A stretch of 64,000 nucleotides of DNA, taken from an uncultured Candidatus Actinomarina sp. GTDB lineage: Bacteria; Actinomycetota; Acidimicrobiia; Actinomarinales; Actinomarinaceae. A model generated the notes under the pieces. That model searched no databases, was not told where the DNA came from, and saw only the letters and a program-made list of their open reading frames with translations. Numbering within the stretch: the first letter of the stretch is position 1; each line of letters starts with the position of its first letter. A program made the translations under genes and the position numbers. This document shows positions 4,902-60,874 of this stretch, piece after piece. The stretch covers positions 49,457 to 113,456 of the forward strand of contig CABXDL010000001.1 in NCBI GenBank assembly GCA_902510995.1, given 5' to 3'.

Positions 4902-4976
4902 AACTTAATCCTACAAAACTTCGGCAAAAAGGGGGACTTATTATTGTTTATGGTTTATAAATTGAAAAAAGTCAGT

Positions 4977-5050
4977 GGGCCTAGTTAGATTTGAACTAAC
5001 GACCTCATCCTTATCAGGGATGCGCTCTAACCAGGCTGAGCTATAGGCCC
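4977..5050 (-). tRNA. tRNA-Ile (anticodon GAT)
   Basis: The reverse complement folds as a cloverleaf with acceptor GGGCCUA/UAGGCCC and anticodon loop CUGAUAA. Confidence 0.85.
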
Positions 5051-5139
5051 TTACGTCATATATACATTAGTAACGAAAATAAAATATTTCTAAAATTTTT
5101 TCATTTACACTGGAATACAAGGCATAATATAAAAAGCAA

Positions 5140-5212
5140 GGGGATGTAGCTCAGTTGGAAGAGCACCTGCTTTGCAAGCAGGGGGTCGTGGGTTCAAGTC
5201 CCATCATCTCCA
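5140..5212 (+). tRNA. tRNA-Ala (anticodon TGC)
   Basis: GGGGAUGUAGCUCAGUUGG start, anticodon loop UUUGCAA, and the G3:U70 Ala identity pair in the acceptor stem. Confidence 0.85.
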
Positions 5213-5427
5213 CGATAAGGTATTCTAAATATATGGAAAATAAAGATTTCGAAAACCTAAATGACGAAGAACTCTCAGAGTTAAAAGACTCACTTGAAGA
5301 GACAATTCAAAATAGAAAAAGGAAGCGTCTAGCAGCTTCTAAAAAAGTAATGGGAACAAAAGGGATTGCAACAGCTTGGATTATTATTGCGATACTTATT
5401 TCTATCTACAGATATATTTCATTTTAA

Positions 5428-11267: not shown

Positions 11268-12518
11268 ATGTTAGATTCACAAATATTAAAGAATAATCTT
11301 GAGGAATTTAATGAAAATTTGAAGAAGAGAGATATCTCTATTGATGTGAGTCTCTTAATAGATCTTGATGAAAATAGGAGAAAGGCGAAATTTGAAGCTG
11401 AGCAGATAAGAGCTGAGCAAAATAAATTAGGCAAAGAGATTGCAAAAGCTGACAAAAATGAAAAACAGGAACTTTTAAAAAAAGCATCAGAGTTAAGTAA
11501 TAATTTCAAGAGTTTATCGGAAAAAGCAGAAGAAGAAGAAGAAAAGTTTTTAGACCTATGGATAAAAATACCAAATATTATTGATGCTTCTTCTCCTGTT
11601 GGTTCCACAGATGAAGACAATAAAGAAATTAAAAAAATTGGAGAGGTTAAAGAATTTAAGAATCTAAGGGATCATTTAGAGATCGGAGAGACATTAGGTC
11701 TAATTAACGTTGAAAAAGCTGCAGAAGTTTCTGGTTCACGCTTTTCATACATTTTTGGTGACTTAGTAAAGATTGAATTCAACTTAGTTTCTTATGTTAT
11801 GAATAAGCTTTCTGATAACGGCTTCCTTCCAACAGTTCCCCCAGTTTTAGTTAGAGAAAATGCACTATATGGTACAGGATTTTTTCCTGATGATGCAGAG
11901 CAGGTATATAAAATACAAAATGACGAACTATACCTTGTCGGTACATCAGAGGTATCTTTAGCTGCCTTACACGGTGATGAAATACTAGAATTTGATTCAT
12001 TACCATTAAGGTATGCTGGTTTTTCAACATGTTTTAGAAGAGAAGCAGGAACTTATGGTAAAGACACAACAGGAATATTTCGAGTTCATCAGTTTGATAA
12101 AGTGGAAATGTTTTCTTTTTGTGATCCAGAGAAATCAAAAGAAGAGCACGAATATCTTCTAACTGTTGAAGAAGAGATATTAAACGATTTAGAAATACCA
12201 TACAGGGTTGTAGATGTCTGTTCAGGCGATTTAGGAGCTTCTGCGGCAAAAAAATATGATATAGAAGCTTGGATGCCTAGCCAAAACAACTATAGGGAAG
12301 TAACCTCTTGTTCTAACACAACAGACTATCAAGCTAGAAGGCTAAATATTAGGACAAAAAAAGACAAGGATACATCACTAATTCACACCTTGAATGGAAC
12401 AGCATTGGCAGTTGGAAGAATCTTGATAGCGTTAATTGAAAATAATCAACAAGAAGATGGTTCTGTAGAGTTCTCAGACGAACTTTCTAAGTTAACAGGT
12501 GTAAAAAAACTAAGCTAA
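11268..12518 (+). CDS. serS: Seryl-tRNA synthetase
   Basis: N-terminal coiled-coil arm plus class II aaRS core motifs. 416 aa. Confidence 0.9.
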   Translation: MLDSQILKNNLEEFNENLKKRDISIDVSLLIDLDENRRKAKFEAEQIRAEQNKLGKEIAKADKNEKQELLKKASELSNNFKSLSEKAEEEEEKFLDLWIKIPNIIDASSPVGSTDEDNKEIKKIGEVKEFKNLRDHLEIGETLGLINVEKAAEVSGSRFSYIFGDLVKIEFNLVSYVMNKLSDNGFLPTVPPVLVRENALYGTGFFPDDAEQVYKIQNDELYLVGTSEVSLAALHGDEILEFDSLPLRYAGFSTCFRREAGTYGKDTTGIFRVHQFDKVEMFSFCDPEKSKEEHEYLLTVEEEILNDLEIPYRVVDVCSGDLGASAAKKYDIEAWMPSQNNYREVTSCSNTTDYQARRLNIRTKKDKDTSLIHTLNGTALAVGRILIALIENNQQEDGSVEFSDELSKLTGVKKLS

Positions 12519-13061
12519 CAATAAGCTTGCAATCATACTCATCCCAAGAATGATATAAACGACTCTTTCAATTTTCTTATTTTGCATTAAGAATTTTTGT
12601 AAATTCTCTCCAAGAAATAGCCAAGTGATAACACAAGGCCCCCCAACAATTAAATAAATTAGATTTGCTTGAAGGTGGGATATATCAAAAGCAGTTAGTC
12701 CAGAAACCGCCATAACAACACCCTTTGGATTAACCCATTGAAATAAAGCAGCTTGAAAAAAAGTAAAAGGCTTCTCGTTTTCAGATATCTCTTTATCAGA
12801 TGTTTTTGTTGTTGCTACTTTATAGGCTATAAAAGTTATAACTGCATATCCAATATATTTGAAATTATCAAGTACAACATCTGGAACAAATGTTAATAAA
12901 TTACCACCAAGAAAAAATAAAAAGTTAAACCCAAGCCAAATTCCAAAAAAATGAGGAAGAGATGCTTTTCTTCCAAATCTTATACCAGATGCCATAAGCA
13001 TAGAGTTATTCGGTCCAGGAGTTATAGAAGTAACAAATGCAAAAATACCAAATTCGAGCAT
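12510..13061 (-). CDS. LysE/RhtB-family amino-acid exporter
   Basis: Six TM helices and an N-terminal LysE-type sequence pattern. Confidence 0.65.
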   Translation of the reverse strand: MLEFGIFAFVTSITPGPNNSMLMASGIRFGRKASLPHFFGIWLGFNFLFFLGGNLLTFVPDVVLDNFKYIGYAVITFIAYKVATTKTSDKEISENEKPFTFFQAALFQWVNPKGVVMAVSGLTAFDISHLQANLIYLIVGGPCVITWLFLGENLQKFLMQNKKIERVVYIILGMSMIASLLLA

Positions 13062-13098
13062 TTGGTTATATTAACATCAACATAGGAAAAGTTAAAAA

Positions 13099-13557
13099 AT
13101 GAAATATATATCAGATGAAGACAAGATGAAAGTAGCTCTTGATGAAGCAAGAAAAGCTCTTGATATTGATGAAGTTCCAGTAGGTGCAGCAATATTTGAT
13201 AAAAACGATAATTTAATTTGTGCAAATCACAATAGAAGAGAATTAGACCAAAACCCAATTTCTCATGCGGAGATACTAGTTTTAGAAGAAGCTTCACAAA
13301 TCTTAGGCACTTGGAGACTTGAAGAGACAACAATAGCAGTAACTTTAGAACCAGATGCTATGTGTGCTGGTGCTATTTCCTTATCGAGAGTTAAAAAATT
13401 AATATATGGAGCTCAAAACGAAAAGGCCGGTGCAGCTTTTTCATTATATAACATACCTCAAGACCCAAGATTAAATCATTTTGTTGAGATAAAAGATAAT
13501 ATTCTTACGCATGAATCTGAAGATATATTATCCTCTTTCTTTGACAGTAAGAGATAA
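13099..13557 (+). CDS. tadA: tRNA-specific adenosine deaminase
   Basis: Zinc ligands in HAE and PCxMCAGA motifs. Confidence 0.85.
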   Translation: MKYISDEDKMKVALDEARKALDIDEVPVGAAIFDKNDNLICANHNRRELDQNPISHAEILVLEEASQILGTWRLEETTIAVTLEPDAMCAGAISLSRVKKLIYGAQNEKAGAAFSLYNIPQDPRLNHFVEIKDNILTHESEDILSSFFDSKR

Positions 13558-13584
13558 CTAAAATAGAGTCTAAGATTTTTTTTC

Positions 13585-13673
13585 GGAGGGATCGCATAGT
13601 CTGGCCTAGTGCGCACGCTTGGAAAGCGTGTAAGGGTTTATCCCCTTCGAGGGTTCGAATCCCTCTCCCTCCG
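13585..13673 (+). tRNA. tRNA-Ser (anticodon GGA)
   Basis: Long variable arm. Anticodon loop UUGGAAA. Acceptor GGAGGGA/UCCCUCC. Confidence 0.8.
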
Positions 13674-13692
13674 CAAAAAATAATACCTTTTA

Positions 13693-13778
13693 GGAGGGAT
13701 GGCCGAGCGGACGAAGGCGATAGTCTTGAAAACTATTGTATGTATTCCATACCGTGGGTTCGAATCCCACTCCCTCCG
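13693..13778 (+). tRNA. tRNA-Ser (anticodon TGA)
   Basis: Long variable arm. Anticodon loop CUUGAAA. Confidence 0.8.
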
Positions 13779-13785
13779 CAAACTT

Positions 13786-13877
<92 letters not shown>

Positions 13878-13878
13878 A

Positions 13879-13952
13879 GCGCCTGTAGCTTAACTGGATA
13901 GAGCATCTGATTACGGATCAGAAGGTTGGGGGTTCGACTCCCTCCGGGCGCG
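13879..13952 (+). tRNA. tRNA-Arg (anticodon ACG)
   Basis: UAGCUUAACUGGAUAGAGC D-arm and anticodon loop UUACGGA. This is the TadA substrate. Confidence 0.8.
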
Positions 13953-13961
13953 CTTTTATTA

Positions 13962-29953: not shown

Positions 29954-30148
29954 TTAAGCTGTTTCTTGAAGTATTCTTCCTCTAACTCTTGGATACTTAA
30001 CTGGAGCATGATTAAAACAATTATTTCTCTTGTTATAAATACTCAATTTTGTATCGCAAGACTCATCGTTACAAGTACGACCCTGTTCAAAACTTTTTGA
30101 TGGCCTAATGCCACCTTTTATTTGACTAGCTTTTAGTCCGTCAGTCAT
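29954..30148 (-). CDS. Small zinc-ribbon protein resembling Z-type ribosomal protein bS14; paralog of 51948..52139
   Basis: C-x4-C-x12-C-x2-H. The SIYNKxxxCFxH and YPRVRG blocks resemble the S14-Z SVYRxFxLCRIC and PGVxK blocks. Confidence 0.5.
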   Translation of the reverse strand: MTDGLKASQIKGGIRPSKSFEQGRTCNDESCDTKLSIYNKRNNCFNHAPVKYPRVRGRILQETA

Positions 30149-30163
30149 TTCTTCCCTTTACTT

Positions 30164-30179
30164 TGTGAATATATTCACA
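30164..30179. promoter_or_regulatory. Perfect CRP/FNR-type palindrome TGTGA-N6-TCACA in a divergent promoter region
   Basis: TTGTGAATATATTCACAA lies between the minus-strand small gene and the plus-strand selW-like gene. Confidence 0.35.
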
Positions 30180-30255
30180 AGATTAACAACTTTACTTGTA
30201 GCATGCAAGCTTTTACAAAACTTTATATTTACTCTTCTTGTGATAGTATTTCATT

Positions 30256-30492
30256 ATGGAAATCAAACTAGAATTCTGTGTAGTCTGAAACTACACACCC
30301 CGTGCAGTTAGTACGGTTGAAGACATTTTAGAAAAATATGGTCAAGAAGTGAAATCTATCGACTTAATACCTACTACAGGTGGCAAATTTGAATTTTATT
30401 TAAATGGTGATTTGCTCTATTCAAAAATAGAAACAGATAGACACACTGAAGACGGAGAGATACTAGGTTTAATCGAAAAAGCGCTTAGTTGA
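30256..30492 (+). CDS. SelW/Rdx-family selenoprotein with in-frame UGA (Sec) at 30286..30288
   Basis: The translation MEIKLEFCVVUNYTPRA...TGGKFEFYLNGDLLYSKIETDRHTEDGEILGLIEKALS has a CxxU motif followed by NYxPRA. A SECIS-like hairpin at 30300..30316 sits 11 nt after the UGA. Confidence 0.6.
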
Positions 30493-31223
30493 ACATTCCA
30501 TTCGACTTAACAATATTTGAACTAGTCTTTATTGCATCTTTGTTATTTATTGCATCATCCATACAAGGACTTTTAGGCTATGGTTTTGCTGTAATATCTT
30601 CTCCAATTCTTGTCCAAATAGATCCTGTACTTGTCCCAGCTTTACTTAGCTTATTAGCTTTTCCCTTAACGATAAAAATATTTAGAAGAGAACGATCACA
30701 GGTTATATGGTCTCCAATGAAGTATTTATTAATTGGAAGGCTCGTTGGAGGTCCTTTAGGACTACTTTGTTTAATCTATTTAGATCAAAGAATCTTATCA
30801 ATAACTGTTGGTGCGATAGTTTTATTTGCTGGTCTTGCTTCTTATTTTGGCTGGACTTTAGAAAGGAATTTTAGGAATTCATTTAATGCAGGAATGTTTT
30901 CAGGCATTTTTGCAATGATTGCAGGTGTTGGAGGACCTCCTGTAGCAATATTATATAGAGATACAAAAGGGAAAGAATTTAGACCATCTTTGAATGCAGT
31001 TTTTACATTCGGGATACTTATTACATTAACTCTTTTACTAATAGATGGTCGAATATATCAAGATCACTTTTTTTTGTTTTTATATATGATTATTCCAACA
31101 TTTCTTGGAATAAGCCTCTCGTCTAAATTATTCATGAAGGTTTCAGACAAAGTAATTTCTAATGGAGTTATTTGGTTTTCAATCATTTCAGGATTAGTTG
31201 TTATATCTAGAAATATTTTTTAA
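30489..31223 (+). CDS. TauE/SafE (DUF81) family anion exporter/permease
   Basis: Polytopic protein with a glycine-rich TauE-like N-terminal helix. It overlaps the selW-like stop by 4 nt. Confidence 0.7.
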   Translation: MNIPFDLTIFELVFIASLLFIASSIQGLLGYGFAVISSPILVQIDPVLVPALLSLLAFPLTIKIFRRERSQVIWSPMKYLLIGRLVGGPLGLLCLIYLDQRILSITVGAIVLFAGLASYFGWTLERNFRNSFNAGMFSGIFAMIAGVGGPPVAILYRDTKGKEFRPSLNAVFTFGILITLTLLLIDGRIYQDHFFLFLYMIIPTFLGISLSSKLFMKVSDKVISNGVIWFSIISGLVVISRNIF

Positions 31224-59848: not shown

Positions 59849-60874
59849 ATGAGGCTAACTCAATACTCTCACGGCTCTGGCTGAGCTTGTAAACTCGCAC
59901 CAAGCGAGCTTGCTCAAGTTTTGAAGCAATTTGAACAACATAAAGCACTAAAATCTGAAAACTTAATTGTTGGTTTAGAAAACCCAGATGATGGTGGAGT
60001 GATCAACATTGGTGAAACAAAAATTATACAAACTGTAGATTTCTTTACACCAATTCTCGACAATCCTTATGACTGGGGAAGAGTTGCAGCTGCTAATGCC
60101 TTGTCTGATATTTATGCAATGGGAGGAGATCCTATATCTGCACTTCAACTAGTTTGTTGGCCCAGAGAAGATATAAGTTTTGATATCTTGGCTGAAGTGA
60201 TTAATGGAGGCCTTGACGTTATGGGTGAAGCAGGTTGTACCGTTATTGGTGGTCATAGTATTGACGACAAAGAACCGAAGTATGGTTTTTCCGTAACAGG
60301 AGTAATAAAAGACAATCCATTACTTAACAACAGCATTTCAGATAAAGACAAACTATATATTACAAAACCACTAGGCACAGGAATCATTGCAACAGCAATA
60401 AAAAAAGACATGGCTTCAGAGGAAGAAATCCTAGAAGCTACAAATAACATGGTTGCATTAAATAAAAATGCACTTAAGTTTGCAAAAGATAATAATGCAA
60501 ACGCACTCACAGACATAACTGGTTTCGGATTACTTGGTCATTTAACAGAAATGATAAACGGGACAAAGCTATCAGCAGTTATAAATTCAGACAATATTCC
60601 AGTAATTAAGGGAGTACATGATCTTCTTAATAAAGACATTTACCCTTCAGGGAGCGAAAGAAACCTAGCCTCTATAAAAGATAAATTAATATATGAAGTT
60701 GAGGAAGAGAAAATTAAAATATTTTGTGATGCCCAAACAAGCGGAGGTTTGCTAATTTCACTACCCGATAAAGGAAATATCAACCTTAAAGAAGCAAGAG
60801 ATAATTACGGAATTGATATCTGGGAAATAGGCGAAATAACTACACAATATAATGAAAAGATAAATATTATTTAA
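59849..60874 (+). CDS. selD: Selenide, water dikinase (selenophosphate synthetase), Sec-containing (UGA at 59882..59884)
   Basis: AGGAGG RBS, then ATG 59849 and the translation MRLTQYSHGSG-U-ACKLAPSELAQVL. This matches the SelD active-site motif, in which E. coli has Cys. The ORF track starts only at 59921. Confidence 0.85.

Follow-up and report, generated by a model that had tools for sequence, protein, structure and literature searches.

The stretch of DNA analyzed here, referred to as the window, comprises 64,000 nucleotides (nt) from Candidatus Actinomarina (contig CABXDL010000001.1, 49,457-113,456), and all coordinates are positions in it. At 30256-30492 on the forward strand it contains a short gene with an in-frame TGA. 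The reading frame opens with the ATG at 30256 and closes with the terminal TGA at 30490-30492, and the TGA at 30286-30288 is its only interruption. The translation is MEIKLEFCVV*NYTPRAVSTVEDILEKYGQEVKSIDLIPTTGGKFEFYLNGDLLYSKIETDRHTEDGEILGLIEKALS*, in which the segment after the first UGA starts with NYTPRAV and the last residues are EKALS. We consider it highly probable that this is a genuine Actinomarina gene encoding a 78-residue SelW-like (Rdx, thioredoxin-like) selenoprotein, in which the UGA stands for selenocysteine (Sec). The original prediction, which was made from the sequence alone, had placed the start, the in-frame TGA and the stop at these same positions. The Sec insertion sequence (SECIS) and the other elements of the gene are as follows.

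30256..30492, forward strand: predicted coding sequence of the SelW-like/Rdx selenoprotein, 78 residues (77 standard residues and Sec11), terminal TGA included
30277..30288, forward strand: CVVU redox motif, Cys8-x-x-Sec11, aligned with the CxxC of 2fa8, 2p0g, 2ojl and 3dex and of 34 representative clusters
30286..30288, forward strand: predicted Sec-encoding UGA, codon 11; TGA in 62/62 genomic homologues
30300..30316, forward strand: predicted bacterial SECIS hairpin, with a 6-bp stem (30300-30305/30311-30316, CCGTGC/GTACGG) and a 5-nt loop, AGUUA (30306-30310)
30349..30492, forward strand: shortened open reading frame (ORF) of 47 amino acids (aa) with a GTG start, reported by stop-to-stop gene callers instead of the full gene

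The gene was expected to escape ORF finders. In the mechanical ORF list of the window, the locus is indeed represented only by the 47-aa piece at 30349..30492.

Conservation of the UGA and of the reading frame

A homologue scan with one genome per species identified 62 loci, nearly all of them from Candidatus Actinomarina, Actinomarinales or OCS155. The closest, L001 from the single amplified genome (SAG) AG-313-C18, is 99% identical, and two, L061 and L062, are distant relatives at about 66% GC. The codon at the CxxU position is TGA in all 62 loci, over a range of 56-99% in protein identity and 32-66% in GC content. The ATG does not vary among the 53 distinct Actinomarinales sequences. Counted by codon position (1, 2 and 3), the variable sites number 4, 1 and 8 in codons 1-10, where third positions account for most of the variation, and 39, 20 and 60 in the codons downstream of the TGA. 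This pattern and the invariant ATG indicate protein-coding constraint in one frame on both sides of the TGA, which answers the question of conservation across the TGA raised with the original prediction. The best-conserved stretch of the protein is formed by codons 12-31 (NYTPRAVST.EDILE.YG), and no start codon is found between the TGA and codon 32.

More distant relatives were collected by searching 1.84 billion representative proteins with a profile, which returned 657 clusters; the 147 nearest were classified by motif. A CxxC motif is present in 34 of these, so cysteine does occur at this codon in relatives, as had been proposed for checking. Another 41 appear as 'CxxW', which are Sec forms translated with genetic code 4, and 66 start just past the U position, as is expected of Sec forms clipped by gene callers. 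Sec/Cys pairing at the UGA position is thus seen in solved structures as well as in the 34 CxxC clusters. Three entries from this search, P0135, P0237 and P0243, were rejected as spurious; they are unrelated repeat proteins in which many weak matches were summed. Two of the distant representatives P0212, P0236 and P0144 read 'YWGMWNY' and are possibly UxxU double-Sec forms mistranslated with code 4, and one reads CxxG (CSVGNY), possibly a UGA call in the style of code 25.

Assignment to the SelW/Rdx family

For profile scoring of this protein and of the selenophosphate synthetase SelD described below, U was replaced by C. The membership in the SelW/Rdx family that had been proposed is borne out by Pfam Rdx PF10262 (61.5 bits against a cut-off of 22.6, with residues 3-74 on model positions 2-73 of 74) and by NCBIfam TIGR02174 (CXXU_selWTH; 53.5 bits against a cut-off of 34.2). 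The top-scoring NCBIfam model is NF041051 (SelTWH_Campy), with 72.1 bits and an end-to-end alignment, but this score lies below its equivalog cut-off of 88. The gene therefore belongs to the broader TIGR02174 subfamily only and stands outside the NF041051 equivalog.

Searching PDB sequences with phmmer returned four proteins described as 'selenoprotein W-related', 2fa8, 2p0g, 2ojl and 3dex, with E values from 2e-7 to 1e-4. In these alignments their CTQC/CRQC motifs fall exactly on C8-V-V-U11. An AlphaFold2 model, made from the database form that reads W in place of U, has a predicted local distance difference test score (pLDDT) of 69.6, with residues 1-12 below 50, and contains a helix at 15-28, three strands and a helix at 68-76. 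When this model was compared to the PDB with Foldseek, the best 20 matches were all Rdx structures, with probabilities of 0.63-0.98, template modelling (TM) scores of about 0.5 and E values of 0.04 or higher. Model and matches together lean towards the thioredoxin-like beta-alpha-beta-beta-beta-alpha fold of the family. In the SelW/Rdx family the CxxU motif forms a reversible selenenylsulfide. Since the protein contains this motif as Cys8-x-x-Sec11, it is most likely a thiol/selenol oxidoreductase.

A predicted SECIS hairpin directly downstream of the UGA

The hairpin at 30300..30316 begins after a gap of 11 nt (30289-30299) from the UGA. Its position, spacing and AGUUA loop had been predicted exactly. 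We compared it to the published criteria for bacterial SECIS (bSECIS) elements (PMC13188914 Fig. 2).

Apical loop: 3-9 nt required, 5 nt observed
Upper stem: 4-16 bp required, 6 bp observed
Loop bases: G among the first two positions and G or U as the next base required, G and U at loop positions 2-3 observed
Distance from UGA to loop: 16-37 nt required, 17 nt observed
Minimum free energy (MFE): at most -7.5 kcal/mol required, -8.2 observed (variants -8.5 to -9.4)

The MFE of the isolated hairpin corresponds to a z score of -3.8, and 0/200 shuffled sequences fold as well.

Covariation was analyzed in a gap-free alignment of 62 sequences, 40 of them distinct. The stem is paired in 100% of the distinct sequences. 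Its closing pair, 30300/30316, is U-A in 22, C-G in 17 and G-C in 1 and remains intact throughout. According to a neighbour-joining gene tree, this pair underwent at least 3 independent double changes and is the sole pair with double changes, and the pair 30304/30312 switched between G.U and G-C at least 5 times. The covariation score was reached by 0/500 shuffles, slid controls were 13-46% paired, and RNAalifold predicts exactly the SECIS helix and nothing else. The loop occurs as AGUUA, AGUUG and CGUGA, with its G and U invariant.

The closing pair links a synonymous site, the third position of a Pro codon, with position 1 of a Val/Ile/Leu codon, and its conservation is therefore not explained by the amino acids. 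In addition, codons 16-18 and 20 inside the hairpin are invariant even synonymously, while neighbouring four-fold codons are free to vary.

RNAfold also predicts a second candidate hairpin with the UGA in its loop.

30278..30296, forward strand: candidate hairpin, 30278-30284 pairing with 30290-30296, weakly supported

It is 93% paired and contains one covarying pair (G-C in 29, A-U in 8) that reflects a single compensatory event. The helix is broken in L023, L061 and L062, and RNAalifold does not recover it.

A second UGA gene in the window, selD

The window also contains a gene of the selenium pathway that itself needs Sec decoding, the Sec form of selD.

59849..60874, forward strand: selD (selenophosphate synthetase), Sec form, 341 aa, MRLTQYSHGSG-U-ACK, with AGGAGG upstream of the ATG; TIGR00476
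59882..59884, forward strand: Sec-UGA of selD, codon 12, at the active-site position; TGA in 76/76 metagenomic relatives
59912..59927, forward strand: predicted selD SECIS hairpin, with the stem 59914-59917/59921-59924, the loop GUU 59918-59920, lower pairs 59912-13/59926-27 and 59925 bulged

The sole form in the ORF list is 59921..60874, which bears the AIRS domains. Reading upstream leads to the ATG at 59849, with an in-frame TGA followed by ACKLAPSEL. The protein scores 378.9 bits with TIGR00476 (cut-off 125) and 350.4 bits with NF002098 (cut-off 299). The TGA at codon 12 is kept in all 76 readable metagenomic relatives, at 44-100% identity and 31-65% GC, and the independent contig L064 has the same TGA.

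The four upper pairs of the selD hairpin are intact in all 41 distinct sequences, compared to 29-49% pairing in slid controls. Pair 33-43 occurs as 4 pair types and pair 36-40 alternates between G-C and A-U. The loop is GUN, located 33 nt past the UGA. The MFE of the hairpin in the window is only -4.5 kcal/mol, weaker than the -7.5 kcal/mol of the bSECIS criterion. A more proximal hairpin suggested by RNAfold, CUCGC/GCGAG, is paired in 19-32 of the 41 sequences at three of its five pairs and was rejected for the distal hairpin with the GUN loop. In both UGA genes of the window, a covarying hairpin thus presents G-U at its apex.

According to a recent preprint, selC, selA, selD and a divergent selB, the last below the KofamScan threshold, occur in 84/84 complete Actinomarina genomes, which encode about 5 selenoproteins each, including a Sec-form selD with the prefix MRLT (bioRxiv 10.64898/2026.04.03.716425).

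The window further contains a seryl-tRNA synthetase gene (11268-12518), separated by about 1 kb from three tRNA-Ser genes and one tRNA-Arg gene that are tightly clustered (13585-13953). Seryl-tRNA synthetase also charges tRNA-Sec. Nothing Sec-specific was seen in this region (11268-13953).

Decoding of the UGA

These results suggest how the Rdx gene would be translated. A ribosome arriving at the UGA, codon 11, would encounter the hairpin 11 nt downstream. With its 6-bp stem and A-G-U-U-A loop, this hairpin would function as a bacterial SECIS and recruit SelB-GTP together with Sec-tRNA(Sec). Selenocysteine would then be inserted in place of termination, and translation would proceed to the stop at 30490-30492. 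Selenium would accordingly be incorporated at codon 11 in a SelB-dependent manner, and the product would be redox active.

Several observations weigh against this interpretation. Motif and Pfam scans and ARAGORN found no selA, selB or tRNA-Sec in the 64-kb window or the fetched flanks; ARAGORN detected no tRNA-Sec in the window, in 36 Rdx loci or in 44 selD loci. The evidence for these genes in the source genome comes from the preprint, which is not peer-reviewed. The SECIS stem falls in the conserved codons for PRAVST, so part of its conservation is driven by the protein, and for this reason the argument for the hairpin rests on the synonymous and compensatory sites. No Rfam SECIS model matched 30150-30600 at E values up to 10, where only two chance hits, to a microRNA and a snoRNA, were obtained; this says little, because these models are mainly eukaryotic and bacterial SECIS elements are poorly represented among them (bioRxiv 10.64898/2026.04.03.716425). 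Confidence in the structural model is only moderate, as the N-terminal strand and the motif have pLDDT values below 50 and the Foldseek E values are 0.04 or weaker. Finally, the absence of a Shine-Dalgarno (SD) sequence before the downstream permease gene is no proof of coupling between the two genes, because SD-like motifs are scarce throughout the window, with SD-like tetramers at only about 17 of 59 mechanically called starts.

Among the alternatives, decoding of the UGA without SelB and Sec fares best and is still quite improbable. The UGA would be read through by a near-cognate tRNA (as Trp or Cys), or Cys would be inserted via the Sec machinery, and the hairpin would do no more than delay the ribosome or impede the release factor. 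This would be in line with the absence of selA, selB and selC from the window and the fetched flanks and with the divergent selB of the preprint, and the possible extra hairpin around the UGA could affect termination. It does not account for the specific bSECIS geometry of the hairpin with its invariant loop G-U, nor for selD as a second UGA gene in the window with a covarying apical G-U hairpin. The UGA is also located exactly at the redox Cys position of a family with Sec/Cys pairs, and a Sec-form selD would be pointless without Sec decoding.

Codons 1-10 could instead encode a regulatory leader peptide of their own, terminated at the UGA, with the downstream part translated independently by re-initiation. 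We regard this as very improbable. In its favour are the shortness of the upstream segment and a possibly leaderless mRNA, but codons 12-31 are the best conserved although no start codon precedes codon 32, and both the family models and the solved homologues align continuously over the UGA.

There is hardly any chance that the genetic code is reassigned, with UGA as Trp (code 4) or Gly (code 25), and that the gene encodes an ordinary 84-aa CxxW or CxxG protein. Public collections do contain versions of 84-92 aa with W at both UGA positions, and the genome is low in GC (32%), like those of many code-4 organisms. The GC content of the window ranges from 30 to 36%. However, under table 11 the window is 90% coding, its 58 long ORFs end in TAA (34), TAG (13) and TGA (11), and TGG makes up 1.05% of their codons. 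The coding density and the 11 TGA-terminated ORFs indicate that UGA is an ordinary stop in the window, and the Rdx gene itself ends with one. A sense UGA would only add a non-conserved tail (WTFHST, WTHHST, WVYLLT) running into the permease gene. The same TGA and hairpin are found in the 66%-GC relatives, and a W would occupy the catalytic Cys position.

A pseudogene or sequencing error, with the 47-aa ORF from GTG 30349 or nothing at all as the real product, would fit the output of standard gene callers, which give only that ORF, but is effectively refuted by the identical TGA in 62 independent genomes, by in-frame purifying selection in codons 1-10 and 12-31, and by the loss from the 47-aa piece of the first strand and redox motif, both within the Pfam match (residues 3-74).

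Overlap with a TSUP permease gene

The selenoprotein gene is followed by a permease gene on the same strand.

30489..31223, forward strand: TSUP/TauE-SafE permease, 244 aa; PF01925, 84 bits against a cut-off of 32.6
30489..30492, forward strand: TTGA overlap, the TTG start of the permease on the TGA stop of the Rdx gene; 61/61 sequences

The PF01925 match extends over residues 17-236 and model positions 3-235 of 237, and no NCBIfam model matched. The 4-nt overlap between the Rdx stop and the permease start was described correctly in the original prediction. In 60/60 Actinomarinales loci the permease starts at offset +233. The final amino acid of the Rdx protein varies, yet its codon invariably has the form NNT (AGT in 36, GGT in 14, GAT in 10 and GTT in 1 of 61 sequences), whereas all four bases occur at the third position of a nearby Ala codon. 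This indicates that the TTGA overlap itself is under selection.

TSUP transporters are poorly characterized carriers of sulfur-based anions (PMC5840216). Because the Rdx stop overlaps the TTG start of the permease, the two genes probably share one mRNA. From this arrangement, the permease is probably co-translated with the selenoprotein gene, plausibly through translational coupling, in which ribosomes finishing the selenoprotein would go on to the permease. The Rdx gene is older than this pairing, since L061 and L062 carry it without a TSUP permease.

The preprint lists a third selenoprotein grouping as 'matching K07090', a TSUP transporter (bioRxiv 10.64898/2026.04.03.716425). This grouping is probably the Rdx ORF, which maximum-overlap mapping would have assigned to TauE through the 4-nt overlap. 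The permease was also considered as a selenoprotein in its own right and rejected, with its frame closed by TAA or TAG directly upstream in every locus inspected and free of any in-frame UGA.

The overlap would also permit the Rdx gene to act as a selenium-status gate, with the permease translated only after Sec insertion at codon 11. On a possibly leaderless mRNA, the sole start available to the permease gene would be the TTG inside the TTGA overlap. Scarce selenium or Sec-tRNA would then cause termination at codon 11, and no permease would be made. We consider such a gate unlikely. If it did operate, it would tie the transport of sulfur or selenium oxyanions to the selenium supply.

Putative promoter and neighbouring genes

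An extended -10-like element is found just upstream of the selenoprotein gene.

30241..30249, forward strand: putative extended -10-like element, TGaTAGTAT, ending 6 nt before the ATG

There is no SD sequence between this element and the Rdx ATG. In Actinomarinales loci TGATAGTAT, TGATACTAT or TATAGT is located at a near-fixed distance from the ATG, and in L061 (66% GC) TAGTCT has the equal 6-nt spacing. The position of the element, the lack of an SD sequence and the same spacing in L061 suggest that the Rdx mRNA may be leaderless. Across the window, many starts are closely preceded by TAnnnT-like hexamers, suggesting frequent SD-less or leaderless initiation.

The permease gene is followed by lnt. 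Upstream, on the opposite strand, are a 64-aa Cys/His ORF, copZ and a gene for a copper P-type ATPase (copA). The synteny of all these genes extends even to the 66%-GC relatives L061 and L062, which lack the permease and have a convergent amidohydrolase-like gene in its place. L061 (9965-10195) and L062 carry the same selenoprotein gene with the TGA, the hairpin CCGUGC-CGUGA-GCACGG and TAGTCT 6 nt before the ATG.

The 64-aa ORF (29954-30148, reverse strand; MTDGLKASQIKGGIRPSKSFEQGRTCNDESCDTKLSIYNKRNNCFNHAPVKYPRVRGRILQETA) contains a C-x4-C...C-x2-H pattern and is always near copZ-copA. It is 88-97% identical across Actinomarinales and about 60% identical in the 66%-GC relatives, and it is better conserved than its neighbours. 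The earlier designation as bS14-like could not be upheld, as no Pfam (E up to 0.1), NCBIfam or PDB sequence match (E up to 10) was found.

About half of the Actinomarinales species contain an insert of about 1.9 kb between the 64-aa ORF and the Rdx gene (loci L014-L018, L021, L022, L027, L029 and L033-L060). Within this insert is a divergent gene, with its AAGGAG and start only about 40 nt from the Rdx ATG, and the -10-like element is still kept.

At 4975-5213 a tRNA-Ile(GAU) gene on the reverse strand and a tRNA-Ala(UGC) gene on the forward strand are divergent and 90 nt apart. In most bacteria this tRNA pair is located in the 16S-23S spacer. No rRNA gene was found anywhere in the 64-kb window.

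Relation to known selenoproteins and database records

The gene is of a known kind, and both its family and the use of selenium in this lineage have been described. SelW-like CxxU proteins with an in-frame bacterial SECIS were reported from the Sargasso Sea in 2005, with 48 sequences (Zhang, Fomenko & Gladyshev, PMC1088965). In the Global Ocean Sampling (GOS) data the SelW-like proteins were the most abundant selenoprotein family, with 427 Sec and 56 Cys forms (Zhang & Gladyshev 2008, PMC2398784). The Rdx gene shares with these entries the family, the CxxU motif, the bacterial SECIS within the coding sequence (its small apical loop containing a G), and the marine habitat. The likeness is by description. 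The earlier entries are unassigned reads, whereas the Rdx gene is placed in Actinomarina in the context of a TSUP permease and copZ-copA.

The most abundant deep-Sep family of Actinomarina in the preprint, 78 aa long, with a single U, labelled 'uncharacterized' and found at gene-caller UGA stops (bioRxiv 10.64898/2026.04.03.716425), is very probably this gene. The match is by description; organism group, length of 78 aa and the single U are in common. In the preprint the family had no UniRef90 or KofamScan hit and no SECIS by Rfam models, whereas here the family is assigned and a SECIS with covariation is defined.

The solved homologues 2FA8 (Agrobacterium Atu0228), 2P0G (Vibrio cholerae), 2OJL (Bordetella) and 3DEX (Streptomyces SAV_2001) align continuously with the Rdx protein across the motif and are also its best structural matches. 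Unlike it, they contain CxxC instead of CxxU, are about 20-25 residues longer and read CTQCNW where the Rdx protein reads CVVUNY.

The mammalian proteins SelW, SelT, SelH and Rdx12, which share the Pfam and TIGRFAM family with the Actinomarina Rdx gene, are said from the 2007 work of Dikiy et al. in Biochemistry to have a thioredoxin-like fold with the CxxU located where the first strand meets the first helix. Eukaryotic members of the SelW family depend on a SECIS in the 3'-UTR (untranslated region) with SBP2/eEFSec. The Actinomarina gene differs from them in its in-frame hairpin directly past the UGA. The SECIS of E. coli fdhF, studied in the Bock laboratory, reportedly begins 11 nt past the UGA and exposes a G-U in the apical loop. 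The Rdx SECIS is alike in the 11-nt gap and the loop G-U; it differs in a shorter stem of 6 bp, in the lack of an identified bulged U and in a UGA outside an extended lower stem.

The locus had been described as unannotated. This is accurate for metagenome-assembled genomes in GenBank, which hold the shortened hypothetical protein, but not for JGI/IMG, where cluster members are named 'predicted Rdx family selenoprotein'. Collections from NCBI, JGI and Tara contain the exact 47-aa product under the name 'hypothetical protein' (e.g. MBO71407.1), and at JGI this product is also listed as 'predicted Rdx family selenoprotein'. Database homologues of seemingly full length (84-92 aa) read W both in place of U and where the gene has its terminal stop (...ALSWTHHST); these are code-4 translations of the Rdx gene. 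Entries in public collections (P0001-P0134) are mostly such forms, the rest being shortened 47-aa forms. One code-4 form, P0016, is found on 892 contigs and is named 'selenoprotein W-related protein'. The NCBI entry P0105 is chimeric, joining an HMA-like N-terminus to the Rdx C-terminus. A second protein search returned the same Actinomarinales code-4 forms and nothing further.

Significance

Our analysis adds the Rdx/SelW-like name for the 78-aa family of the preprint, an explicit SECIS for each of the two UGA genes, the unvarying overlap of the Rdx gene with the permease gene and the finding that the upstream ORF is not bS14. It also shows that public collections distort the locus, either as 47-aa pieces or as code-4 forms with Trp at the catalytic site. 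Actinomarina are among the most abundant bacteria of the surface ocean, and since their genome is only about 1.1 Mb in size, each gene that they have kept is informative. The Rdx gene is probably a large contributor to the marine 'SelW-like' signal, which has been dominant since 2005 with no organism attached to it. General knowledge of selenoproteins is unchanged by these results. Only the permease overlap has wider potential, as the synthesis of the permease could depend on selenium.

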